From positions 4,955 to 44,995 of the forward strand of contig QWRL01000002.1 in the NCBI GenBank assembly GCA_003670425.1: 40,041 nt of DNA, read 5' to 3'. This DNA comes from Chloroflexota bacterium (GTDB taxonomy: Bacteria; Chloroflexota; Anaerolineae; Anaerolineales; UBA11657). The notes under the pieces are model-generated. The model searched no databases and was not told the origin of the DNA. It saw only the letters and a program-made list of their open reading frames with translations. Made by a program: the position numbers and the translations under genes. Below, one piece after another: positions 491 to 23,444 of this stretch (the stretch's first letter is position 1; the number at the start of each line of letters is the position of its first letter).

Positions 491-2041
491 TCACCATGAG
501 ACGCGGTTTTGGTCGGACACGCATTGGCAGGCGCGCACCTCGCGCGCGGGCAGCGCAAAACTAAGGCGCCCTTTGTACGCGGTTCCATCAGACACCGCCC
601 GCCAGCCACCCAAATCAAACGCCACCGCGCTGTCAGCCGCCAGCCACTCGCCGTTGTACTTGCGTGCCACATGCACATGCGTGCCCGTGCTGCGCCCGCC
701 CTCGCAAGACGCAACGCCAAGTGCATCGCCGGCTGCCAGGCGCGTGCCCACCGCCGCAATGCTGTCTGAGCGCAGGTGGAAGTAAAAGATCACCCAGCCG
801 GTATGCTCGTTGTTGTCGCCATCGGTGTCCAGCAGCGCAGTGGCGTAGCCGTTGCGCACAATCACGCCCGGCGCCATGGCGGTAACCGGCTCGTTGGATT
901 GCCCGCAGGTGCCGGCCAGCGCCGGTGGCGCAAAATCCATGGCGGCCCACGGCAATGAGCTGCCCCACGCCGGATGCGGACCGCCGGTCAAAGACCAGAT
1001 GACGCCGGGCTTAAAGGGCAGCGTGAATGCGGGCTGGCGCAAGTTTGCCGGCTGCAGCAGCAACGCGCCAGCAAATGCATCGCCAAACAGCTGCTGGTAG
1101 GTGGCGGCAAACCCCTGCGGGCCAATGCTCTGCTCAAACTCCGCCGGCTGTTCCAGCTGGCTGAAGAGCTGCAGCAGCGCCACGGTGCCGGCGTTCTGCC
1201 ACGGGTCAATGCGCTGCACGCTGCCATCCAGCAGGCGCAGCTCCACTTGCGTGCCGGCGCGCCAGGCGTAGTAGCCGTCGTTCAATTGCGCGGCAGCCCA
1301 CTCCAGCTGGTTGGCCATGCCGGTGCGCGTGTCCGGCGGCAGGCGCAGCGGATTGCGCGCGGCACCGGCGGGCGGGTCGGCGTTGCGCAGCAGGCCGCTG
1401 CGGTATTCCAGCAGCGCCAGCAGCACGCGCGGGTTCACCGAATATTGCAGCGCCACCTCGTTTATCAAGTCCCAAGACGGGCGCGCTTCATCCCAGCTGC
1501 CATCGCGCGCGCTGTAGGCCGGCTCGTGGCGGTGCGCCACCCAGCCGTCAAAGTTTTGCAGCTGTTCAGCGAGGTTACCCGGTGCCTCGGCGTACACCAC
1601 GGCGCTGTCTGGCAGCATGTGGAAGGCGCTGCCCAGCAGCGGCGCGTAGCTGGCGGGAATGTTGATGGCGCGCCCGGGCGGCAGCGTGCTTTGAAAAACC
1701 GCCAGCGCCGGGTTGGCTTTTAGGATGGCATCCGTGGTCTGGTTGAAGCGCGCTGCCAGCGCCGGCAGTGTGTCTCCGGATTGCACCACATATGGCAGCA
1801 GCTCGCCAAACTCCCAGCGCGTGCGCACTGGCACAGCTGTGGGCAGCGCTGCCGGCGCCGCCGGCTGCAGCTCCGGCCCGGCAGCTGCCGGCGCTGCGGG
1901 CAGCGCGCTTTCAGCCGGGGGCAGCACCAGGCGCGATATCAGCGTAAGCGTCAACGCTTTTGCAGATTCAATTGTGGGCAGTGCGGCGCGTGGCGCTGCA
2001 ATCACAATTGCAACCGCTGCCAGAATGAAGACGGCCGTCAT
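491..2041 (-). CDS. LysM domain-containing M23 family metallopeptidase (membrane anchored)
   Basis: LysM-like segment YVVQSGDTLPALAARFNQTTDAILKANPAL. C-terminal M23 motifs FYFHLRSDS...GDALGVASCEGGRSTGTHVHVARKYNGEW. ATG at 2041 (verified cat at 2039-2041) precedes signal-anchor MTAVFILAAVAIVIAAP. An alternative GTG at 2101 would add a basic N-region. The track ORF extension to 2494 overlaps the upstream gene and is rejected. Confidence 0.85.
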   Translation of the reverse strand: MTAVFILAAVAIVIAAPRAALPTIESAKALTLTLISRLVLPPAESALPAAPAAAGPELQPAAPAALPTAVPVRTRWEFGELLPYVVQSGDTLPALAARFNQTTDAILKANPALAVFQSTLPPGRAINIPASYAPLLGSAFHMLPDSAVVYAEAPGNLAEQLQNFDGWVAHRHEPAYSARDGSWDEARPSWDLINEVALQYSVNPRVLLALLEYRSGLLRNADPPAGAARNPLRLPPDTRTGMANQLEWAAAQLNDGYYAWRAGTQVELRLLDGSVQRIDPWQNAGTVALLQLFSQLEQPAEFEQSIGPQGFAATYQQLFGDAFAGALLLQPANLRQPAFTLPFKPGVIWSLTGGPHPAWGSSLPWAAMDFAPPALAGTCGQSNEPVTAMAPGVIVRNGYATALLDTDGDNNEHTGWVIFYFHLRSDSIAAVGTRLAAGDALGVASCEGGRSTGTHVHVARKYNGEWLAADSAVAFDLGGWRAVSDGTAYKGRLSFALPAREVRACQCVSDQNRVSW

Positions 2042-2117
2042 CCAGCCCAGCAAGCGGCGCTGGCGCCGGCGCTGGCGCGTGATATGCGGAGAGAGTGGCA
2101 CGCCGGGCGGTGCTGCG

Positions 2118-3482
2118 TCAGGCGTCCGCGAAGCGCTGCAGCAAGTGCGCGCTGTGGCGGATGCCCTGCTGCAGCATGTCCAGGCGCACATGCTCGTTGG
2201 GTGCGTGTGCCTGCGAGCCGGGGTAGCCCGCGCCGCAGGTGACGATGGGAACTTTGAGGTGCTCGATGAATGCGTGGTTGGGGCCGGAGCCGCCGGACAT
2301 GGGCACCAGCACCGGCTCGCGCCCGTACACAACGCGCGCGGTGTCAGCTGCCATTTGCACAAACGGATGGTCGGGGTCTGTGCGCGCTGGCGGCTCGCTG
2401 CCCAGGTCTTCCACGAGCACATCGGCAAACCCCTGCGCGTCCAGATGGCTGCGCAGCTTTTGTAAAATGTCGGCCGGCGTTTGGTTGGGCACAAGCCGGA
2501 AGTCCACCTTGGCGCTGGCCTCGGCGGGCAGCACAGTCTTGGAGCCCGCGCCCTGGTAGCCGCTGTTCAACCCGCAGATGGTGCAGGTGGGCTCAAAGCT
2601 GGCCTGGCGCTCCAGCGCCACGCCGCCCGTTACGCCGCGCAAAAATTCTGTGACACCGTAGCGCTCGCGGTAACTTTGCGCGGGGTCCGGAATGTGCGCC
2701 AGCAGTTCCAAGTCGCGCGCGCTCGGCGCCTGCACCGCGTCGTAGAAGCCGGGGATCAAGATGCGCTCCATTGAATCTTTGAGGGAGTTGAGCGCCCATG
2801 TAAGGCGCCACGCTGCGTTGGGAAAGATGGAGCCGCCAAGGCCGGAGTGCACATCCTGCGTGAGGCTGCGCACGGAGAGCCCCACATAACAAATGCCGCG
2901 CAGGCCAAGGAACAAATTGGGATTGCCCAGGTGGTCCACGCCGCCAAACTCCCAGATGCAAGCATCCGCTGCAAGGCGCTGCTTGTGCGCTGCCACAAAC
3001 GGCTCAAGCCCGGTGCTGCCGGTCTCCTCCTCGCCCTCAATTACAAACTTGATGTTGCACGGGTAGGCGCCGCCGTGCAGCGCGCGCACCGCGTCCAGCG
3101 CAGCCAGGCGGCAAAGCAGGTTGCCTTTGTCATCAATGGCGCCGCGCGCATACAACGCGCCGGCGCGCACGGTGGGCTCAAATGGCGGCGAGTCCCACAG
3201 CTCCAGCGGCTCGGGCGGCTGCACATCGTAATGATTGTAAAAGAGCAGCGTGCGTGCGCTGCGCCCGCGCGCTTCGGCCACCAGCACGGGGTAGCCGCTG
3301 GTGGGCAGCAGCTCCACATCAAAGCCGCGCGCTGCCAGCAGCCCGGCCACCAGGTCGGCGCAGGCTGCCATGCCCTCGCCCGTGGCGGAGATGCTGGGCT
3401 GCGCGCACAGGCGCGCCAGCTCGGCGGTGGACTGTGCCATGTGGCTGGCAATGAAGGCGTCGAGCGCAGCCGTGGCGCTCAT
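2118..3482 (-). CDS. M20 family metallopeptidase (dipeptidase / ArgE-DapE-CPG2 family)
   Basis: Motifs NHYDVQPPEP, ARGAIDDKGN and FVIEGEEETGS are typical of M20. ATG at 3482 gives MSATAALDAF. That start overlaps the stop of the upstream small ORF as ATGA (3479-3482). Confidence 0.9.
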   Translation of the reverse strand: MSATAALDAFIASHMAQSTAELARLCAQPSISATGEGMAACADLVAGLLAARGFDVELLPTSGYPVLVAEARGRSARTLLFYNHYDVQPPEPLELWDSPPFEPTVRAGALYARGAIDDKGNLLCRLAALDAVRALHGGAYPCNIKFVIEGEEETGSTGLEPFVAAHKQRLAADACIWEFGGVDHLGNPNLFLGLRGICYVGLSVRSLTQDVHSGLGGSIFPNAAWRLTWALNSLKDSMERILIPGFYDAVQAPSARDLELLAHIPDPAQSYRERYGVTEFLRGVTGGVALERQASFEPTCTICGLNSGYQGAGSKTVLPAEASAKVDFRLVPNQTPADILQKLRSHLDAQGFADVLVEDLGSEPPARTDPDHPFVQMAADTARVVYGREPVLVPMSGGSGPNHAFIEHLKVPIVTCGAGYPGSQAHAPNEHVRLDMLQQGIRHSAHLLQRFADA

Positions 3483-3811
3483 GCCGGCACCTGCGGCAGA
3501 AAGTGGCGGATGATGCAGCGCGCGTCGCTGAGCGCGTCGGCCTCGCCGGGCAGCTGGTGGCTGGTGGTGATGCGCAGCGTGAGGTGCGTGGCTGCGCTGC
3601 GAATGTGCGCCGGCTGCGCGCTGTCTTGCGCAATGCGCTGCAGCTGCCCGTAGGCAGTGCGTGCAGCGCTTGCGCCCGCGCCGGCTGCCACGGCCCAGCC
3701 GGCAGCGCGCCGCGCACAAACGCGCGCGCGCCCTTCGTTGCCGGCTTGGCGCGCCTGCTCGGCCAGCGCCAGCTCACGCGCAATCGCAACTTCAGCAGCC
3801 GGGTTAAGCAT
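3479..3811 (-). CDS. hypothetical helical protein (110 aa), translationally coupled to the M20 peptidase
   Basis: ATG at 3811. Its TGA stop overlaps the M20 ATG (ATGA). Composition looks protein-like rather than a shadow frame. No recognisable domain. Confidence 0.5.
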   Translation of the reverse strand: MLNPAAEVAIARELALAEQARQAGNEGRARVCARRAAGWAVAAGAGASAARTAYGQLQRIAQDSAQPAHIRSAATHLTLRITTSHQLPGEADALSDARCIIRHFLPQVPA

Positions 3812-5391: not shown

Positions 5392-6189
5392 TTAGGCGCC
5401 GGGCAGGCGCGCAGCCGCAAACCCGCCCGCAATATCCACGCGCGTCGCGGGCTGCGCAATGGCCGCCAGCAGCAGCGGGTGCGCCGCCGTTTGCCCCAAG
5501 TCCGTTCCGTAAACAAACTCCAGTTTGTGTACATGCAAGCCGGCAGCGGCCAGGGCGTGCGCAAAGTGCGCCGTGCTTGCAGCCGTGGCATGCGCCAGCA
5601 CTGTTACCAAAATGCCGGCGGGGTGCAGTGCGCTGCGCACCAGCGCCAGCGTGGCAGCTGCGTCTGGCAATGTGGAGATGGTGTGCGTGTCGGTGATGGC
5701 GTCGAAGCTGCCGGCGGGCAGCGCCTGTGTGATGTCCCCGGCTACAAACTTGGCTGCTGCGCCCGCGGGCAGTGCCAGTGCGCGCGCGCTGGCAATGCAC
5801 TGCGGCACAAAATCAATGCCGGTGACAGTGCGCACCGCACCGCAGGCCGCATACCATGTGGTGAGGTGGCCGATATTGCAGCCCAGATCCAGCAGCAGCG
5901 GCCGCCCGGCAACCAGCGCTGCAACCGCGCTGCCAATTGCGTGCAGTGTGCTGGCCTGGCGCGAGTACATCACGCCGGCTACTTGCGGCTCGGCCATGGC
6001 TGCGTAAAAGCGCAGCTGCTCTGCAGTTGTGGGGGCGCGGGTTGCGCCGGGCTGGCGCGTGGCGTCCAGCGCTGCGCGCAGCGCCGGGTCCACTGCGCGC
6101 CAGCGTGCCTGCCAGTGCGCCGCGCTGGCGCACGGCGTGATGCCGTAGTGCGCCAGGTGGCGCGCTAATGCGCGCGCATCATTGGGCAT
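5392..6189 (-). CDS. class I SAM-dependent methyltransferase
   Basis: Motif I LLLDLGCNIGHLT followed by VTGIDF. ATG at 6189 (cat 6187-6189) lies 7 nt after the serC stop, so the two are probably co-transcribed. The track extension to 6273 overlaps serC. Confidence 0.8.
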   Translation of the reverse strand: MPNDARALARHLAHYGITPCASAAHWQARWRAVDPALRAALDATRQPGATRAPTTAEQLRFYAAMAEPQVAGVMYSRQASTLHAIGSAVAALVAGRPLLLDLGCNIGHLTTWYAACGAVRTVTGIDFVPQCIASARALALPAGAAAKFVAGDITQALPAGSFDAITDTHTISTLPDAAATLALVRSALHPAGILVTVLAHATAASTAHFAHALAAAGLHVHKLEFVYGTDLGQTAAHPLLLAAIAQPATRVDIAGGFAAARLPGA

Positions 6190-7279
6190 GCTGCGCGCAA
6201 AACTCCACCATGAAGTCGCGCAGCGCCTGCGCGCCGGCCAGCGGCATGGCGTTGTAAAGCGAGGCGCGCACACCGCCCACAGAGCGATGCCCCTCCAAAC
6301 TTTGCAGCCCGCGCGCAGCCGCCTGCGCCAGAAAGTCGCGCTCCAGCTGCTCGCTGGGCATGCGAAAAGTCACATTCATTTGCGAGCGGCTGTCTGCGCG
6401 CGCATGCCCGCGATAGAAGCCCGCGCTCGCATCAATGGCTGCATACAGCAGGCCGGCCTTGCGCGTATTTAGCTCTGCCATCTTTTGCAGCCCGCCAATT
6501 TCATTGCGCAGCCAGTCTGTCACCAGCTGCAGCAGGTAAATGGCAAACACCGGCGGGGTGTTGTACATGGAGTTGTTCTGCGCGTGAATGCGGTAGTCAA
6601 GCATCGTGTGCAGGTCTTGCGGGGCGCGTTCCAGCAGCGCTTCGCGCACAATCACAATCGTCACGCCGGCCGGGCCGGCGTTCTTCTGCGCGCCGGCGTA
6701 CAGCAGGCCGTGGTCCGCCACGGGCAGCGGCCGGGAAAGAAAGTCTGACGAGCAGTCGCACACCAGCGTGGCGCCGCGCGGCTGCAGCGCCTGCGGAAAC
6801 TGCACGCCCTGAATGGTCTCGTTGGATGTGTAGTGCAGGTACGCGGCCTGTGCGTCGGGCGCCAGCTCCGCGGGCTGCGGCACGCTGCTGTAGCTGCCTG
6901 CCTTGCCATTCCACACTACGCGCACCTCGCCCTCACGCTGCGCCTCCTTGACGGCTTTCTCGCCCCACACACCGGTCACCACATAGTCTGCCGGCTTGTC
7001 CGCAGCGCGCAGCAGGTTTAGCGCCACCATCGAAAACTGCAGCGTAGCGCCGCCCTGCAAAAACAAAATTTTGTAGCCGGCCGGCACGCCCAGCAGGCTG
7101 CGCAGATTGTCCTGCGCCTTGTCTATGATGGCGTCAAACGCGGGCGAGCGGTGGCTGATCTCCAGCACAGACATGCCGCTGCCCGGCAGGCACAGCAGGT
7201 CACGCTGTGCTTTTTGCAGCGCGGGCAGCGGCAGCGTGCACGGCCCGGCGCCAAAGTTGAAGATGCGGTCTGAAGTCAT
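6179..7279 (-). CDS. serC: phosphoserine aminotransferase
   Basis: MTSDRIFNFGAGPCTLP, ISHRSPAF, LFLQGGATLQF and AGAQKNAGPAGVTIVIVRE are classic SerC motifs. ATG 7279 is chosen. The alternative ATG 7294 would add MEAPN. Confidence 0.93.
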   Translation of the reverse strand: MTSDRIFNFGAGPCTLPLPALQKAQRDLLCLPGSGMSVLEISHRSPAFDAIIDKAQDNLRSLLGVPAGYKILFLQGGATLQFSMVALNLLRAADKPADYVVTGVWGEKAVKEAQREGEVRVVWNGKAGSYSSVPQPAELAPDAQAAYLHYTSNETIQGVQFPQALQPRGATLVCDCSSDFLSRPLPVADHGLLYAGAQKNAGPAGVTIVIVREALLERAPQDLHTMLDYRIHAQNNSMYNTPPVFAIYLLQLVTDWLRNEIGGLQKMAELNTRKAGLLYAAIDASAGFYRGHARADSRSQMNVTFRMPSEQLERDFLAQAAARGLQSLEGHRSVGGVRASLYNAMPLAGAQALRDFMVEFCAQHAQ

Positions 7280-7471
7280 GTTTGGTGCTTCCATAATATT
7301 TTGTGGGTTGGCTGATTGCAATCCAGCGCTGCGGTGGGGTGATTGTACAGCGGGCACAGCAGCCCGTGCCCGTTGGCAGCCGCCGGCAAATATTATGCTC
7401 CGGGGCCTGCAAAGTGCCGTTAAAACACTGCCATGCTATACTGCCGCTGGCAAACATTTTAAAAATAAAAC

Positions 7472-14631: not shown

Positions 14632-15789
14632 TCAGCTTTCGGCCAGCTCCGTGCGCAGCGCGTGCAGCAGGCGCTCAACATCTGCGGCTGTGTTGTAGGC
14701 CTGCAGCGAAACGCGGATGAATGCCTGGCCGTTCCACGCTACCAGCGGCACCTCCACTTTGTGGCGCCCGTACAAGCGTGCTTGCAGGCGCTTGATGTCC
14801 ACGGCTGGCAGGCGCGCCGCCACCATTTGCCCAAGCCACTGCGTGCCATCACTGCATAACGGCGCGAGCCCCGTAAGGGCGTTGATTTGCGCCAGCGCTG
14901 CGTGCGCCAGTTTTCGGCAGCCAGCGCTGACGGCAGTCCAGTTGTGCTCCTGCTGAAAGCGGATGGCATCCGGCACCGTGAGGAACGCTGCCAGATCGCG
15001 GGTGCCCTGCCACTCATGGTAATCAATAAATTGCGACACGCCCGGCTTCTCTGCTTCATAGCCCCAGCTGACAACCAGCGGGTCCAGCTGCGCCTGCAGC
15101 GCCGGCCGCGCGTAGAGGAACGCCGCACCCTTTGGCGCACACATCCACTTGTGGCAGGCGCCGGTGTAGATGTCCGCGCCCACTTGCTCCAGGTTTAGCG
15201 CCACATGCCCGGGCGCATGCGCACCGTCCACAATTGTGAGGATGCCGCGCTCACGCGCCCGCCGGCAGATCTCCGCCACCGGAAACACCAGCGCGGTGGG
15301 GCTGCTGATGTGGCTGATGAAAATGACGCGCGTGCGTGCCGTGACCCCCGCCAAAAACCCCTCAATAAATTCGGCGTGGCTGCCCACAGGCAGCGCCACC
15401 GCGCGGTTGATGTATTGCGCGCCATTCTGCGCACACACAAAGCGCCACGTGCGGTCCAGCGCACCGTACTCGTGGTCGGTGGTTAATATTTCGTCGCCGC
15501 GCTGCAGCTGCAGGCTGCGCACCACCATGTTGATGGCGGTTGTCGGGTTTGGAAAGAAGACGACGTCATTGGCTGCCGCCCCCAGGTAGGCAGCCAGCTG
15601 CGCGCGCGCCTCGGCCAGCAGCGGCGCAGCGCGCCGCCCCAAAAATTCCACCGGCTGGCGCTCCAGCTCGCGCTGCCAATTTTGATACGCCGCAAACACC
15701 GGCGCGGGGCACGCGCCAAACGATCCGTGGTTGAGGAAGGCAACTTCCGGGTCAAGCAGAAACAGGGCGCGCAATTCTGCGGGTGTCAT
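14632..15789 (-). CDS. class V aminotransferase-fold PLP enzyme (isopenicillin-N epimerase / cysteine desulfurase-like)
   Basis: FLNHGSFGACP at the N-terminus, VDGAHAPGH, and the PLP-lysine context YTGACHKWMCAPKGAAFLY. Its ATG (15787-15789) overlaps the TGA of the upstream VWA frame (15786-15788) as ATGA. Confidence 0.85.
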   Translation of the reverse strand: MTPAELRALFLLDPEVAFLNHGSFGACPAPVFAAYQNWQRELERQPVEFLGRRAAPLLAEARAQLAAYLGAAANDVVFFPNPTTAINMVVRSLQLQRGDEILTTDHEYGALDRTWRFVCAQNGAQYINRAVALPVGSHAEFIEGFLAGVTARTRVIFISHISSPTALVFPVAEICRRARERGILTIVDGAHAPGHVALNLEQVGADIYTGACHKWMCAPKGAAFLYARPALQAQLDPLVVSWGYEAEKPGVSQFIDYHEWQGTRDLAAFLTVPDAIRFQQEHNWTAVSAGCRKLAHAALAQINALTGLAPLCSDGTQWLGQMVAARLPAVDIKRLQARLYGRHKVEVPLVAWNGQAFIRVSLQAYNTAADVERLLHALRTELAES

Positions 15790-16745
15790 TGGGCAGCGTC
15801 CAGCTCGCGGCGCACGGTGGCATACAGGCTTTCAGCTTTCAGCTCCTGCAGCGTTAGGCACGGCGCGCCCAGGTTCAGCGCCAGCTCGCGTGCCAGGCCC
15901 TGGTCAAACGCAACGTGCTCCATGTTGATCACAACGCTGCGCAGGTGCGCATCCTTAAAGCGCTGCGCGGTGCGGCGCGCTTCTTCGCGCGGTGCCAGCG
16001 ATGTCATCGACACATTGCCGGCACCGTCAGTGAGCACAATCAGCAGCGGCGTGACATCCGGATGCAGGTTTTTTTCGCGCAAGATTACCTTGTGGGCCAG
16101 ATGCAGGCCGGCGGAGAGCGGCGTCTTGCCGCCCACCGGAATATCTGCCAGTGCGCGCTGTGCCAGCTGCACGGAGTTGGTGGGCGGCAGCACCAGCGTG
16201 GCGCTGCTTTTTTGAAACACCACCAACCCCACGCGGTCGCGGCGCTGGTAGGCATCCGTCAGCAGTGACATGATGGCGCCCTTGGTGGCCGTCATGCGCT
16301 CGGCCACAGCCATGGACCATGATGCATCCACCAGAAACAAGACCAGGTTGGCGGCTTTGCGCACGCGCACCTTGCGCTGCAGGTCGTGGCGCATGATGGC
16401 AAAGGCCACATGCTGGCGCTGCGCAGCGCGCGCCGGCTGGTGCGGCGCTGCGGCGCGCAAGGTTGCGTCAAACGCGATGTCGTTGGTTTTGCCGTTGGCG
16501 GGGCGCGCCTGCACATAGCGCCCGCGTTTGCGGTCCGTGCGCGTGCGGCTGCGCCGGCCGCTGTGCTTGCGCGTAAGTTTGTCTAGCGGTGTGTTGAGGA
16601 TGCGCGTTTCAAATTCTTTGCCAACGGCAGCGTGCTGGCCGCCGTCCCACCATTTGTTGTCGCCGGAGCTGGTGGTGTTTTGCAGCGCGGGTTGCGCCGC
16701 GCCCGGGTCTATTTCTTGTTCAGAGCCGGCTTGCGCTACTTCCTG
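15786..16745 (-). CDS. ChlD/BchD-type linker + von Willebrand A domain frame, with no start codon of its own upstream of the conserved region; reachable by a -1 shift from the ChlI frame
   Basis: VWA/MIDAS motif LVLFLVDASWSMA, TPLSAGL and LIVLTDGAGN. The ChlD-like pre-VWA motif is RKRGRYVQARPANGKTNDIAFDATLRAAAPHQ. The only start found by the track is GTG 16514, which falls inside that motif (RGRY-V). The frame is open for 85 codons upstream, back to TGA at 16770-16772, with no ATG, GTG or TTG. Confidence 0.75.
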   Translation of the reverse strand, partial: QEVAQAGSEQEIDPGAAQPALQNTTSSGDNKWWDGGQHAAVGKEFETRILNTPLDKLTRKHSGRRSRTRTDRKRGRYVQARPANGKTNDIAFDATLRAAAPHQPARAAQRQHVAFAIMRHDLQRKVRVRKAANLVLFLVDASWSMAVAERMTATKGAIMSLLTDAYQRRDRVGLVVFQKSSATLVLPPTNSVQLAQRALADIPVGGKTPLSAGLHLAHKVILREKNLHPDVTPLLIVLTDGAGNVSMTSLAPREEARRTAQRFKDAHLRSVVINMEHVAFDQGLARELALNLGAPCLTLQELKAESLYATVRRELDAAQ

Positions 16746-17842
16746 TTTTTTTTTACGGAGCTGGCCGGGTCATCTGCGGCTTGCGCGTCGCCCTTCTCGG
16801 ATTTGCCGGCTTCGCTGCGCGCCTGCTCCAGCCGTTCTTCGAGGCCGTTCAGGTCCACCACGGCGCTTTCAAGCGGGCCCTTGCGGGCGCGATGCGGCAG
16901 CGCCAGCTCAGCCGCCAGCAAAATGTCGCGGTCGGTAATGGCGCTGCGCCCTTCGAAGGCTGCCTGGGCGCGTGCGCCGCGCAAGATCACAAGGTCCGCG
17001 CGATGCCCATCCACGCGCAGGCCGGTGGTCAGCGCTGCAATTGTGCCCAGGTCCGCGCGCGTGTGCGTCACGGCCGGCAGGCGCTGCCGTGCAGCTTCAA
17101 TCTCGTGCGAGATGCGCTGCACTTCATTGCTCCACTCTGCGGCAAAAGCCTGCGCGTCAGCTTCGAAGCTCAGGTTGCGCTCCATAATCAGCACGCGGTC
17201 GCGCGCATTGTTGAGCCCCTGAATATCCACGGAGAACGCAAAGCGGTCCAGCAGCTGCGGGCGCAGATCGCCTTCTTCCGGATTCATGGTGCCCACTAGA
17301 ATGAAGCGCGCCGGATGCGAAAACGAAATGCCTTCGCGCTCCACCACATTGATGCCCATGGCGGCCGAGTCCAGCAGCAGGTCCACTACGTGGTCATCCA
17401 GCAGGTTTACCTCATCAATGTAAAGCAGGCCGAGGTTGGCGGAGGCCAAGATGCCGGGGTCAAAATGGCGCTCGCCTTTTTGGATCGCCTTCTCAATGTC
17501 AAGCGTGCCCACCACGCGGTCTTCGGTGGCGCTCACGGGCAGGTCTACAAACGGAGTGGTGCGCAGCGTGGACTGCAGTGTGCCGTTGACGCCCGCGCGC
17601 TCTACGCACTCGGTGCACCATTGGCCGGGCTGGGCGGGATCGCAGCCAAAGCGGCAGTTTGCCACCACCGCCACCTGCGGCAAAAGCGCTGCAAGTGCAC
17701 GCGCCGCAGTGGATTTGGCCGTGCCGCGCTCTCCGCGGATTAAAACGCCCCCAATGCGCGGGTTCACCGCATTCAGCAGCAGGGCGCGCTTCATGCGCTC
17801 TTGGCCCACAATGGCCGGAAATGGAAATATTTTGGAAGCCAT
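16736..17842 (-). CDS. ChlI/BchI-type AAA+ ATPase (Mg/Co-chelatase motor subunit family)
   Basis: FPFPAIVGQERMKRALLLNAVNPRIGGVLIRGERGTAKSTAARALAALLP closely follows the ChlI/BchI N-terminus and Walker A. LLYIDEVNLLDDHVVD is Walker B. ARFILVGTMNPEEGDLRPQLLDRF holds sensor and arginine-finger residues. The 0-frame ends three codons after the A9 run. Confidence 0.9.
   Translation of the reverse strand: MASKIFPFPAIVGQERMKRALLLNAVNPRIGGVLIRGERGTAKSTAARALAALLPQVAVVANCRFGCDPAQPGQWCTECVERAGVNGTLQSTLRTTPFVDLPVSATEDRVVGTLDIEKAIQKGERHFDPGILASANLGLLYIDEVNLLDDHVVDLLLDSAAMGINVVEREGISFSHPARFILVGTMNPEEGDLRPQLLDRFAFSVDIQGLNNARDRVLIMERNLSFEADAQAFAAEWSNEVQRISHEIEAARQRLPAVTHTRADLGTIAALTTGLRVDGHRADLVILRGARAQAAFEGRSAITDRDILLAAELALPHRARKGPLESAVVDLNGLEERLEQARSEAGKSEKGDAQAADDPASSVKKNRK
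16746..16754 (-). other. A9 homopolymer (T9 on the + strand): candidate -1 frameshift / transcriptional slippage site, or a homopolymer indel
   Basis: The minus strand reads tcc gta aaa aaa aac agg aag TAG in the ChlI frame. In the VWA frame it reads ctc cgt aaa aaa aaa cag gaa gta gcg. It is the only 9-nt homopolymer I saw inside coding sequence in the window. Confidence 0.7.
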
Positions 17843-17859
17843 TGTGCGCTGGAACCCTG

Positions 17860-17865
17860 ATTATA
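17860..17865 (-). promoter_or_regulatory. putative -10 box TATAAT (minus strand) for the ChlI operon
   Basis: The minus strand reads gggTATAATcagggttccagcgcacaATG, placing the box 20 nt upstream of ATG 17842. Confidence 0.4.
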
Positions 17866-17902
17866 CCCTTGAGCTGAATTTGCGCCTCCATTGGAAGTAA
17901 TC

Positions 17903-17908
17903 TATAAT
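17903..17908 (+). promoter_or_regulatory. putative -10 box TATAAT for rpsA
   Basis: The sequence tcTATAATgt lies 36 nt upstream of ATG 17945, with aggag at 17927-17931. This makes the track TTG start at 17891 implausible. Confidence 0.45.
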
Positions 17909-17944
17909 GTTGGCGGGAAGAAACACAGGAGCACTGCAACCGTA

Positions 17945-19267
17945 ATGATAGATATTAATCCGGCTCAAAACGAGCCGGAAGACATGGATGTGACCGCTTG
18001 GCTGCCGGACGAAAAACCTGAGGACTCGCTGCCCAAACCGGGCGAAATGCGCCAGGGCCGGATTGCGCGCATCTCGCCCACCGAAATCCTGATTGAGATT
18101 GGCACCAAGAGCGAAGGCGTGCTGAGCGAGCAGGAGCTGGCATCGCTGCCGCAGGCGCAGCGCGACGCGCTGCAAGTGGGCGCCATTGTCACCGTAGAGG
18201 TGCTTGGCGAATCGGAAGACGACGATGGCCGCATCCTGGTGTCGATGGCGCGCGTGCGCGAGGTGCGCCACTGGGGCCACCTCGATGAGCTGTTCGACAA
18301 GCAGCTGGCCATCACCGGCGAGATTGTGCACTTCAACAAAGGCGGCTTGATTGTATCTGCCCCGGAGTTTGCCGGGCAGCGTGCGTTCCTGCCATCTTCG
18401 CAGGTGGGGCTGGAGCGCCATCAGCGCGCCGTTGGCAGCACTCCGGCCGAGCGCTGGGGCAGCATGACCGGCGAAACGGTTGTGGTCAAAATTTTGGAGA
18501 AACCCGATGCGGAGCGCAACCGGCTGATTGTTTCTGAGCGCTCTGCCAGCAAAGAAGCGCGGGCTGTGCGCCGCAAGCAGGCCATGGATGCAATTGCGCC
18601 CGGGCAGGTGCACACCGGCCGCGTGGTTTCCATTTCCAGCTTTGGCGCCTTTGTGGATATTGGCGGCGCGGACGGGCTGGTGCATCTCTCCGAGCTTTCG
18701 TGGCGCCACATCGACCACCCGAAGGAAGTGGTGCGCGTCGGGCAGCAGTTGCAGGTCAAGGTGCTGTCAGTGGATTTTGAGCGCCAGCGCATTGCACTCT
18801 CCAGCCGTGTGATTGAGCAAAATCCGTGGGAGGCATTCGCCTCCAAGTTTCAGGACGGGCAGCTGGTGCGTGCCACCATCACGCGCCTCACAAAGTTTGG
18901 CGCCTTTGCCACCATCTCCGCGGCGCCGGAAATTGAGGGCCTCGTGCATGTATCCGAGCTGGCAAACAATACCGTGGAACACGCCCGTGAAGTGGTATCG
19001 CAAGGCGAAGAACTGACGCTGCGCATTCTGAAGATTGAGCTTGAGCAGCAGCGCGTGCGCCTGAGCCTGCGCGAGGTGGCCTCGGCAAATTATGCCGAGC
19101 AAGACTACGCCTTCTACATGGCTGCCACGGATGCACAAGGTGCTGCACCGGAAGCCGCCGCCCCCGAAAATTCCGCCGGCGAGCCCGGTATGCCGCAAGA
19201 CGCTGCGCTGGATGAAGGTGCCAGCGGGCCGGCAGCAAGCGACTCGTCCGCTGCCGACGGAAACTAA
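17945..19267 (+). CDS. rpsA: 30S ribosomal protein S1
   Basis: Four or more S1 OB-fold repeats, e.g. GRVVSISSFGAFVDIGGADGLVHLSELSW and RATITRLTKFGAFATISAAPEIEGLVHVSEL. An acidic/Ala-rich C-terminal tail follows. Confidence 0.9.
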   Translation: MIDINPAQNEPEDMDVTAWLPDEKPEDSLPKPGEMRQGRIARISPTEILIEIGTKSEGVLSEQELASLPQAQRDALQVGAIVTVEVLGESEDDDGRILVSMARVREVRHWGHLDELFDKQLAITGEIVHFNKGGLIVSAPEFAGQRAFLPSSQVGLERHQRAVGSTPAERWGSMTGETVVVKILEKPDAERNRLIVSERSASKEARAVRRKQAMDAIAPGQVHTGRVVSISSFGAFVDIGGADGLVHLSELSWRHIDHPKEVVRVGQQLQVKVLSVDFERQRIALSSRVIEQNPWEAFASKFQDGQLVRATITRLTKFGAFATISAAPEIEGLVHVSELANNTVEHAREVVSQGEELTLRILKIELEQQRVRLSLREVASANYAEQDYAFYMAATDAQGAAPEAAAPENSAGEPGMPQDAALDEGASGPAASDSSAADGN

Positions 19268-21966: not shown

Positions 21967-22005
21967 GAGGCGGCTTGCAAAAACTGCAAGCCGCCTCTTT
22001 TTTTT
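21967..22005 (+). terminator. intrinsic terminator after clpC
   Basis: A perfect 13-bp stem, gaggcggcttgca pairing with tgcaagccgcctc, with loop aaaac and then T8. Confidence 0.9.
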
Positions 22006-22037
22006 GGTGGTTGCGCCACAGAGTGTGTTGGCGCGCC

Positions 22038-22043
22038 TATAAT
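22038..22043 (+). promoter_or_regulatory. putative -10 box TATAAT for radA
   Basis: The sequence ccTATAATcc lies 15 nt upstream of ATG 22059. It sits inside the track ORF 5' extension, which is therefore rejected. Confidence 0.4.
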
Positions 22044-22058
22044 CCAAGCGCCAAACCT

Positions 22059-23444
22059 ATGCCCGCTGATAGAACCGATTATGTGTGCCGCAATTGCGCG
22101 CGCGTTGTGCCGCGCCCGATGGGCAAGTGCCCGCAATGCGGCGAGTTCAACCCCTTTGAAGCAGTGACGGTGCAGGCGCCGGCGCGCACGCGGCGCGCGG
22201 CAGCAGCCGCTGCCGGCGCAGCAGCCGTGCCGCAGCGCCTGAGCGATATTGCGGGCGATGTGGAAGCGCGCCTGCCGCTGGCCATGAATGAGTTTGCGCG
22301 CGTGCTGGGTGGCGGCATTGTGCCGGGCTCCGTGGTGTTGATTGGCGGCGACCCCGGCATTGGCAAGAGCACGCTCATGCTGCAAGTGGCGGGCGATCTG
22401 GCGCACAGCATGCCCGTGCTGTATGTGTCCGGCGAAGAGTCGGCGCGCCAGATTAAGATGCGCGCGCTGCGCCTGGAGAACGGCACCGCTGTGCACGCCG
22501 AGAATTTGCTGCTGATGACCGAGACCGGCCTGGAGAACATACTGGCGCAGATTGATGCAAGCGGCGCACGCGTGGTGGTAATCGACTCAATTCAGACCAC
22601 GCATTGCGGAGACGTTGAGTCGGCTGCCGGCTCAATCACACAGGTGCGCGAGTGTGCTGCACGCCTGACTGCGCTTGCCAAGCGCAGCGCAGCCGCCATC
22701 TTTTTGGTGGGGCATGTAAACAAGGAAGGCACGCTGGCCGGGCCGCGCGTGCTTGAGCACATGGTGGACACTGTGCTCTACCTCGAAGGCGACCGCCATC
22801 ACGTCTATCGCCTGCTGCGCAGCGTGAAGAACCGCTTTGGCCCAACCTCGGAGCTGGGGGTGTTTGAGATGCGCGGTGCCGGCATGGTGGAGGTGGCCAA
22901 TCCGTCTGAGGCTTTTCTGGCGGAGCGCCTGCAAAGCGCACCGGGCTCTGCGATTGCGGTGCCGCTGGAGGGCACGCGCCCGCTGCTGGTGGAAGTGCAG
23001 GCGCTGGCCAGCCCTACCGCGTTTGGCAATCCGCGCCGCACTGCAAACGGGGTGGACTTTAACCGCCTGCTGCTGGTGACTGCAGTGCTGACGCGCCGGC
23101 TGGGCCTGCGGCTTGCCGACCAGGATGTGTTTGTAAATGTGATTGGCGGCATGACAATTGAAGAGCCGGCTGCGGATCTTGCAATGGCTGTGGCGATTGC
23201 GTCCTCAGTGCGCGACCTGCCGGTGGCGGCTGATGTTGCGCTGGTGGGCGAGGTGGGTTTGTCTGGCGAGCTGCGCGCCGTGAGCCAGCTGGATACGCGC
23301 CTGCGCGAGGCGGCCAAGCTGGGCTTCAAGCGTGCCGTAGTGCCGCGTGTGCTGGTGCAAACCGAGCCGTTTCCGGCGGGCATCACGGTAATCCAGGCGC
23401 CATCCGTGGGCGATGCGCTGCGGATTGTGCTGCCGGCCGCGTAA
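22059..23444 (+). CDS. radA: DNA repair protein RadA/Sms
   Basis: N-terminal zinc finger YVCRNCARVVPRPMGKCPQCGEFN. Walker A GGDPGIGKSTLMLQ. The RadA-specific motif KNRFGPTSELGVFEM is present, plus a Lon-like C-terminal domain. Confidence 0.95.
   Translation: MPADRTDYVCRNCARVVPRPMGKCPQCGEFNPFEAVTVQAPARTRRAAAAAAGAAAVPQRLSDIAGDVEARLPLAMNEFARVLGGGIVPGSVVLIGGDPGIGKSTLMLQVAGDLAHSMPVLYVSGEESARQIKMRALRLENGTAVHAENLLLMTETGLENILAQIDASGARVVVIDSIQTTHCGDVESAAGSITQVRECAARLTALAKRSAAAIFLVGHVNKEGTLAGPRVLEHMVDTVLYLEGDRHHVYRLLRSVKNRFGPTSELGVFEMRGAGMVEVANPSEAFLAERLQSAPGSAIAVPLEGTRPLLVEVQALASPTAFGNPRRTANGVDFNRLLLVTAVLTRRLGLRLADQDVFVNVIGGMTIEEPAADLAMAVAIASSVRDLPVAADVALVGEVGLSGELRAVSQLDTRLREAAKLGFKRAVVPRVLVQTEPFPAGITVIQAPSVGDALRIVLPAA

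Follow-up and report, generated by a model that had tools for sequence, protein, structure and literature searches.

The subject of this study is a gene on the minus strand of a 40,041-nt stretch of DNA (63.8% GC; hereafter the window) from contig QWRL01000002.1 of an uncultured Chloroflexota bacterium of the class Anaerolineae. We concluded, with a probability of roughly 0.88, that what appears as two open reading frames (ORFs) is one chlD-type AAA+/VWA chelatase-motor gene with conserved programmed recoding at a run of nine adenines (A9), such that an I-like and a D-like subunit would be made from one locus. Recoding in chlD genes has already been published, both within the family and in the class Anaerolineae, and the window gene is an orthologue of these frameshifted chlD (fs-chlD) genes in an uncultured Anaerolineae lineage. 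The original prediction, which was made from the sequence of the stretch alone, had offered three readings: a homopolymer assembly error, a pseudogene or split gene, and programmed recoding, which it favoured. This last reading is supported by the anatomy of the locus, by a run and a -1 layout that relatives conserve, and by published reporter assays on the same gene family.

The whole recoded gene occupies positions 15786..17842 (minus strand), and its conceptual -1 product is a protein of 685 amino acids (aa; 74.5 kDa, pI 9.2). Standard decoding reads the 0-frame ORF (16736..17842, minus strand, TAG included), which runs from an ATG at 17842 to a TAG at 16738-16736 and encodes a ChlI-like AAA+ ATPase together with the start of a linker (368 aa, 39.8 kDa, pI 5.8). 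The A9 slippery run, the putative recoding site, lies at 16746..16754 (minus strand) and is read in the 0 frame as GT[A AAA AAA AA]C within the sequence TCC GTA AAA AAA AAC AGG AAG TAG. Two -1 heptamers, A_AAA_AAA and A_AAA_AAC, overlap within it, and the 0-frame stop lies 7 nt past it, standard decoding ending three codons past the run. Upstream, the -1 frame is closed by a TGA (16770..16772, minus strand) that forms the 5' edge of the frameshift box, so that the run sits between the TGA of the -1 frame and the TAG of the 0 frame. Past the run, the -1 frame continues for 319 codons to a TGA stop at 15788-15786 (15786..16745, minus strand, in all). The first ATG, GTG or TTG in this frame is the GTG at 16514, which is 85 codons past the TGA and 81 past the run and falls within the conserved motif RKRGRYV. 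The 685-aa protein, with the junction SSVKKKQEVAQAG, results when one A is added or when the frame moves by -1 at the run. That junction would indicate an A10 mRNA or a slip on A_AAA_AAA, and SSVKKNQEVAQAG would indicate that the ribosome had slipped on A_AAA_AAC. Transcripts with A8 or A11 would still encode short products, of 373-374 aa. On re-reading of the sequence, the coordinates, the frames and the A run given in the original prediction all hold. Its 85 start-less codons before a GTG inside the RKRGRYV motif came out the same when recomputed, and its fusion of about 685 aa has exactly the junction peptide it had foretold. The overlap of 33 nt that it gave is actually 37 nt with both bounding stops, or 31 nt between them.

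The A9 run is the sole homopolymer of at least 9 nt in the window. The number of A9 runs expected by chance in the window is 0.15, and at least one occurred in 12 of 100 shuffles; the mere presence of an A9 is weak evidence. Its position within a frame overlap of ~35 nt, taken with its conservation among orthologues, cannot be chance. A shorter A7 run within the VWA-coding part (16069-16075, minus strand; CGC GAA AAA AAC CTG) also contains an in-phase A_AAA_AAC, and it is probably incidental, because homologues do not conserve the peptide there.

The conceptual fusion carries the Pfam domains Mg_chelatase, AAA_lid_2 and VWA (the VWA at aa 501-648). Its best-matching family is TIGR02442, putative cobaltochelatase, to which it aligns end to end (residues 6-665, model positions 1-640 of 641) with 761.7 bits, narrowly missing the curated cut-off of 779.45. 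The matches to TIGR02030, BchI-ChlI (residues 6-327, model 1-322 of 337, 412.5 bits, cut-off 466.95), and to TIGR02031, BchD-ChlD (residues 15-672, model 1-606 of 608, 425.8 bits, cut-off 499.55), likewise stay below threshold, the product thus missing all three curated equivalog cut-offs. Residues 5-327 match the solved structures of ChlI (8osf and 6l8d) and BchI (1g8p) with E values of ~1e-95, and aa 499-631 match the integrin-I-like domain of BchD (2x31_A). In an alignment of 31 homologues, the Walker A motif GERGTAKS (aa 37-44; 17711..17734, minus strand) has G37, E38, R39, G40, T41, K43 and S44 invariant, as are D143 and E144 of the Walker B motif LYIDEVN (aa 140-146). The same is true of D506, S508 and S510 of the metal ion-dependent adhesion site (MIDAS) motif DASWSM (DxSxS; aa 506-511; 16311..16328, minus strand) and of T574 and D606 in the further MIDAS elements GGKTPL (aa 571) and LTDGAGN (aa 604). 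The part encoded in the -1 frame consists of an acidic/Pro-rich linker, the motifs WWDGG, PLDKLTR, RKRGRY and AAAPHQ, and the VWA domain, and the linker motifs are conserved among 60 aligned homologues. A protein search with the fusion returned, as its best 120 matches, only in-frame proteins from Chloroflexota/Anaerolineae (645-736 aa, 63-71% identity, 97-100% coverage); this list is ranked by full-length bit score, so split genes cannot show in it. The original prediction spoke of a ChlI-ChlD fusion. The ChlI-like and VWA parts do join, as seen in the end-to-end alignment with TIGR02442, but the layout is that of a plain ChlD and not of a special fusion: the "I-D fusion" is an ordinary ChlD-type protein of full length, since every ChlD starts with a ChlI-like AAA+ module.

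Under the mechanism that we propose, standard decoding would yield the 368-aa (39.8-kDa) ChlI-like ATPase. Some expression events would instead involve a move to the -1 frame at the run and yield the 685-aa (74.5-kDa) ChlD-like protein, made up of the same AAA+ module, then the linker and then the VWA/MIDAS domain. An I/D motor would thus receive its small (I-like) subunit and its medium (D-like) subunit from one locus, in a ratio set by the frequency of slipping. By a narrow preference, the shift would come about mainly when RNA polymerase adds one A, giving an A10 mRNA, and a ribosomal -1 slip on A_AAA_AAA or A_AAA_AAC probably contributes.

The evidence from relatives comes from the DNA of 160 loci, half of them (80) from representatives of GTDB species and the other 80 from metagenomes, in each of which we determined the frame relation between the N-terminal and C-terminal parts (N-part and C-part). 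Some metagenome loci duplicate each other or genome loci, and the safest independent count is therefore that of 19 GTDB species. We treated loci with an N-part at least 60% identical as close relatives (n = 79) and those below 60% as distant (n = 78). The -1 split was found in 52 of the 79 close loci, including the 19 distinct GTDB species, and the run at the split was A9 in 35 loci, A10 in 15 and A7 in 2. Another 26 close loci had the in-frame layout, 24 of them with a run of A7-A11 and 2 with none. The one anomalous locus (L143, 806-2843) resembles its -1 sisters in its A10 run and 0-frame stop, yet its -1 frame closes after 274 nt and its C-part is in the +1 frame; it likely carries a second indel, from assembly error or in a decaying gene. 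All 78 distant homologues (from Streptomyces, Dehalococcoidia and archaea) were in frame, and 63 of them had no run of A5 or longer.

Within the -1 group, the 0-frame stop follows 1-23 nt past the run in every locus except one (L142, +168 nt), run and stop are often conserved as GAA AAA AAA ACT TAA, and the -1 frame extends for ~950-1000 nt unless the contig ends first. As in the window, a divergently transcribed rpsA gene adjoins the gene in 15 of the 19 genome loci, which supports the orthology of the loci. When the alignment was anchored on the run, the run was invariant and the 30 positions on each side carried only 0.0-0.5 bits (1.0 at +1). At the protein level, KKK, KKN or KKT stands at the exact column of the run in nearly all of the 60 aligned homologues, in a linker that is otherwise variable. 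Conservation of the -1-frame peptide begins at the run (seen, for example, in GKKNLKLEDE..., WWEGG, PLDKLTR and RKRGRY), and the N and C parts show similar identity among the relatives. We found no conserved start position in the -1 frame of these relatives. In five loci the first -1-frame start codon comes only 80-115 codons past the run, the peptide being conserved throughout; the ATG, GTG or TTG codons that some relatives have 5-27 codons past the run are incidental. An alignment of orthologous loci, which the original prediction had proposed as a check, thus finds both the run and the -1 layout conserved. Judged from sequence comparison, this pattern of conservation is the signature of a recoding site and would exclude both a pseudogene and a VWA gene with a start of its own.

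The A9 genotype itself is borne out by independent assemblies. The exact 368-aa short ORF, which serves as a marker of A9 because its sequence depends on A9 and the stop after it, is present on 197 contigs (NCBI, JGI, Logan and ENA), the 242-aa ORF started at GTG on 149, and the exact 685-aa fusion on 4, all from ENA. A9 is present in each of ten contigs fetched from different samples (L161-L170), whose genes share at least 99% identity with that of the window but differ in their single-nucleotide polymorphisms (SNPs). The three fusion contigs that were fetched (L171-L173, gene at 1501-3558) all have A10, the rest of the sequence being identical. A10 was found on both alleles of a C/T SNP 39 nt past the run (L172 versus L171 and L173), and because it is present on two SNP haplotypes the change from A9 to A10 is recurrent, either as a real polymorphism or as assembly noise. 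We concluded that A9 is the true majority genotype. Public annotation splits the gene into a "Mg-chelatase subunit ChlI" and a "hypothetical/VWA domain-containing protein." Sampling of the organism has been very wide: ~300 blocks of an assembly collection index the short ORF, many of the contigs come from the ENA series GROS21-1, and the short-ORF sequence cluster includes "LBMAG37 Anaerolineae bacterium."

The locus has its closest known counterpart in fs-chlD. Antonov et al. (2013; PMC3711429) grouped 23 genes that have -1 frameshifts into a "magnesium chelatase" cluster, with Herpetosiphon (Chloroflexi) among the genera; A_AAA_AAA and A_AAA_AAC are both in their list of heptamers, and in their Escherichia coli reporters chelatase cassettes shifted at 63% (A11), 40% (A9) and 10% (A7), tracking run length. 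The review by Atkins et al. (2016; PMC5009743) has a section on the Mg-chelatase shift site, and Kuznetsov et al. (2022; PMC9227772) reported fs-chlD in the Anaerolineae genera Anaerolinea, Ornatilinea, Longilinea, Levilinea and Brevefilum and noted that some carriers lack a large chelatase subunit as well as a B12 or chlorophyll pathway, which leaves the task of the I/D pair in them unexplained. Published fs-chlD sites "usually" have a downstream stimulatory structure, which is usual and not obligatory. The window gene differs from the published cases in that its uncultured lineage is not named in the 2013, 2016 and 2022 accounts, that downstream structure is absent on average at the A9/A10 sites of its clade, and that in-frame genes of the clade with the same A run both precede the -1 genes at the base of the tree and recur among them. 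In common with fs-chlD, it has an upstream ChlI-like ORF and an overlapping -1 ORF for the ChlD linker and VWA domain, with a full-length ChlD-type protein as the conceptual fusion; a poly-A slippery site (an A_AAA_AAR/A/C heptamer) in the overlap, A9 being among the experimentally tested lengths; and conservation of both site and frame layout among orthologues (52 of 79, with synteny). As in fs-chlD, annotation treats the two ORFs as separate genes, and in-frame fused homologues occur in other taxa. Anaerolineae and other Chloroflexi are known carriers, some of them with neither a large subunit nor a B12 or chlorophyll pathway. Work by Antonov from 2020 (MBE, msaa081) reportedly also treats fs-chlD, its "stage 8" being fs-chlD as the S and M subunits of a cobaltochelatase, for genomes with cobN and the aerobic B12 pathway and without a separate chlI/cobS.

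A second parallel is dnaX, in which the tau and gamma proteins arise by -1 programmed ribosomal frameshifting (PRF) on A_AAA_AAG in E. coli and by transcriptional slippage on an A9 run in Thermus thermophilus, and which also exists as the two-ORF dnaX of the Chlorobi type. As in dnaX, one gene with an A run would give a full-length AAA+-family protein and a truncated form. Orthologues occur in both layouts, with the long form made by standard decoding or only by recoding, the mechanism may be ribosomal or transcriptional, and the run length of A9-A10 is that of the Thermus and Chlorobi-type dnaX genes. The protein family and role are unrelated to those of dnaX, the shared part here being the N-terminal ATPase and the optional part the VWA/MIDAS domain. 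With the BchI/BchD, ChlI/ChlD and ChlID-CobN systems the gene shares its domain architecture, with Walker A and B, AAA lid, AAPxQ-type pre-VWA motif and MIDAS all intact. It is unlike BchI/BchD and ChlI/ChlD in that the I-like and D-like proteins would come from one gene, and in that no chlH, cobN or tetrapyrrole genes were found in the window or next to the 79 relatives.

How, then, might the split be explained without recoding? Homopolymers are error prone, the exact in-frame 685-aa version exists on four ENA contigs (A10 in the three fetched), and the best 120 protein matches are all in frame, as might be expected if the true gene were an in-frame A10 chlD and the A9 a sequencing or assembly error. 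The uniformly in-frame list is, however, an artefact of sorting by full-length bit score. The 197 contigs that carry the exact A9-dependent ORF come from four sources, A9 was present in 10 of 10 contigs inspected on differing SNP backgrounds, and the -1 split with a 0-frame stop soon past the run is shared by 52 of the 79 relatives (19 species, assembled by different groups); these observations refute an assembly error, which we consider barely credible. A real but unprogrammed frameshift, leaving either a pseudogene or a split gene whose VWA part is started at GTG 16514 or by reinitiation, would accord with the two ORFs of 368 and 242 aa given by gene callers, with the name "VWA domain-containing protein" that NCBI gives to some members and with the incidental starts close to the run in some relatives. 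A start at GTG 16514, inside RKRGRYV, would nevertheless remove the conserved WWDGG and PLDKLTR motifs, and the absence of a conserved start position in the relatives, together with a conserved peptide ahead of the first start codon in the five loci with 80-115 start-less codons, argues against initiation within the -1 frame. Moreover, the catalytic and MIDAS residues are kept in both halves, which have similar identity among relatives, and an unprogrammed event leaves the conservation of a pure A run in GC-rich genes unexplained. The conserved start-less peptide and the invariant Walker A, Walker B and MIDAS residues thus disfavour the pseudogene or split gene that the original prediction had considered, and we regard it as very improbable.

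Phase variation at the DNA level, in which replication slippage would toggle the run between A9 and A10 and subpopulations would make only the short or only the long protein, draws on the recurrence of A10 on two SNP haplotypes of the same population and on the fact that lineages have switched between the in-frame and -1 layouts at least three times. Yet only ~2% of contigs have A10, which is within assembly noise, run lengths stay tightly at 9-10, whereas contingency loci typically show a broad spectrum, and, by analogy with the established biochemistry of BchI/BchD, an I/D motor would need both subunits in each cell; phase variation is therefore unlikely, if a little less so than the other two explanations. 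Several observations also tell against programmed recoding at the A9 run of a chelatase-motor gene. The TIGR02442 score of the fusion is just under the curated cut-off (761.7 versus 779.45), and no large chelatase subunit was found in the window or in the flanks of the relatives, which leaves the "chelatase" function putative. The two products, and their ratio in this organism, are predicted from the sequence, and part of the long product could come from a subpopulation, given that A10 DNA variants exist.

Which machine slips at the run was addressed by RNA folding, in which single sequences were compared with shuffles and expressed as z-scores. The mean z of the downstream fold was -3.25 at A7 loci (n = 4), -0.17 at A9 loci (n = 52) and -0.11 at A10 loci (n = 20). 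The four A7 sites (L078 and L079 at 7083-7140, L002 at 3263-3320, and L088) represent two independent lineages, one in frame and one -1. Each of the four has the exact X_XXY_YYZ phase (CC A AAA AAA G) and is followed by a strong hairpin, the stem beginning 6 nt past the heptamer in L078 and L079 and ~10 nt past it in L002 and L088; as far as sequence and predicted fold can tell, they look like sites of classical ribosomal -1 frameshifting. The A9/A10 runs occur in all three codon phases. A homopolymeric A/T run of at least 8-9 nt at the frame junction, as expected for transcriptional slippage of the Thermus dnaX type, is present as A9 in the window and as A9/A10 in 50 of the 52 -1 relatives. 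Because the runs exceed the heptamer, are indifferent to codon phase, have no conserved stimulator and have repeatedly changed genomic phase, RNA-polymerase slippage seems slightly more likely than ribosomal slippage to be the main route at A9/A10, with the ribosome probably contributing.

Two points stand against slippage by the polymerase. The window has a candidate interrupted stem-loop (GCGC / CCGG / TCTG stems; 16699..16736, minus strand) that starts 9 nt past the run, a spacing compatible with PRF, and that would be a putative frameshift stimulator. Its predicted stability is borderline, with a minimum free energy (MFE) of -14.1 kcal/mol and a z of -1.98 on 45 nt, and a z of -0.70 with a different fold on 70 nt. 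The stem-loop was not seen in the nearest relatives, and strain SNPs showed no covariation within it, the sole SNP hitting an unpaired (bulge) base. The other point is that 52 of 53 frameshifted relatives need a -1 shift, a single direction that favours the ribosome by Antonov's criterion. This is weak evidence, because in the tree the -1 genes are essentially one lineage. An upstream nascent-RNA hairpin that might promote polymerase slippage was dropped, its z-scores scattering about 0. The Shine-Dalgarno-like GAGG right before the run in many relatives lies within Glu codons of the acidic linker, at a spacing wrong for -1 frameshifting. An Rfam scan of 15700-18000 returned only a chance snoRNA match (E 0.43).

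The in-frame relatives add a different aspect. In those with an A run (L001, L003, L005, L013 and L081-L103), the run stands at the same position of the linker, in all three codon phases, and encodes peptides that differ with phase (EKKT, PKKV, VKKN, GKKKA and SKKKR); one of them (L003, 5212-5220) reads GTA AAA AAA AAC as in the window, yet is in frame. These in-frame relatives have 54-71% GC (mean, 63%), and elsewhere AAA makes up only 37% of their Lys codons; in one gene of 71% GC, AAA is used for 0 of the 12 other Lys codons. The conservation of the A run at the nucleotide level in in-frame relatives (24 of 26) suggests the reverse, dnaX-like logic. The -1 frame of these relatives closes 11-56 nt past the run, and we dropped this quick closure as evidence of selection since it was not clearly shorter than chance. 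In a neighbour-joining tree of the N-parts, in-frame A9-bearing genes are basal and the -1 genes, including that of the window, form a large derived group, within which at least two nested sub-lineages (L081/82 and L084/85/89) are back in frame, all keeping A9-A11. The tree thus has at least three switches between the in-frame and -1 layouts in the clade with the run kept. The in-frame chlD genes of the clade carry the ordinary annotation "putative cobaltochelatase."

Tentatively, and with rather less than even confidence, we suggest that the run may be a two-way device, in which -1 genes slip to make the long subunit and in-frame genes slip to make a short ChlI-like one, genomic phase being almost irrelevant. 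In such a device, A7 would work with a hairpin and the ribosome and A9/A10 with RNA polymerase, and the product would be an I/D motor without CobN or ChlH. If this were true, a motor without a CobN or ChlH partner would imply a non-chelatase client. The in-frame A-run layout, the division between run length and hairpin, and the lack of a cobN, chlH or separate chlI close to any of these genes go beyond the 2013, 2016 and 2022 accounts of fs-chlD; the 2020 work may already cover them in part.

As for what follows from programmed recoding of this gene, the 368-aa "ChlI" and 242-aa "hypothetical/VWA" ORFs should be merged in annotation into one recoded chlD, which is split on hundreds of public contigs. 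A well-sampled, uncultured and GC-rich lineage is added to the fs-chlD family. The clade offers a natural series, present in both layouts, that goes from A7 sites with hairpins to A9/A10 sites lacking them and in which run length can be set against RNA structure and polymerase against ribosome. The locus also reinforces the published question of what an I/D AAA+/VWA motor does where there is no large chelatase subunit. Since fs-chlD was already known, current understanding is not overturned.

The neighbours of the gene in the window are of the housekeeping type, among them pheS, pheT, a class-V aminotransferase gene, rpsA, clpC and radA. There are no tetrapyrrole genes and no cobN or chlH in the 40-kb window, whose largest ORF is at most 847 aa, and no second ChlI-like region and no CobN or ChlH in the flanks of the 79 close loci, which together span 590 kb. 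The three ORFs of more than 1000 aa in these flanks were considered as CobN or ChlH candidates and rejected, being of the beta-helix or lactonase type or without a Pfam family. Judged from these 40 kb only, the locus would resemble "stage 1" of Kuznetsov et al., which has no large subunit. The ORF of the class-V aminotransferase (cysteine-desulfurase-like; 14632-15789, minus strand) overlaps the chlD stop codon by ATGA, an arrangement that suggests translational coupling of the two genes. This neighbour is kept among strains of the same organism (L161-L173) and not across genera. Two class-V aminotransferase paralogues (6179-7357 and 14632-15789, both minus strand) lie within 9 kb of each other and flank a CHASE2-adenylate/guanylate cyclase gene and pheST. 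The second-longest homopolymer of the window, a T8 run at 21998-22005 (plus strand), is found between clpC and radA, just past the listed TTG start of the radA-like ORF (21975-23444).

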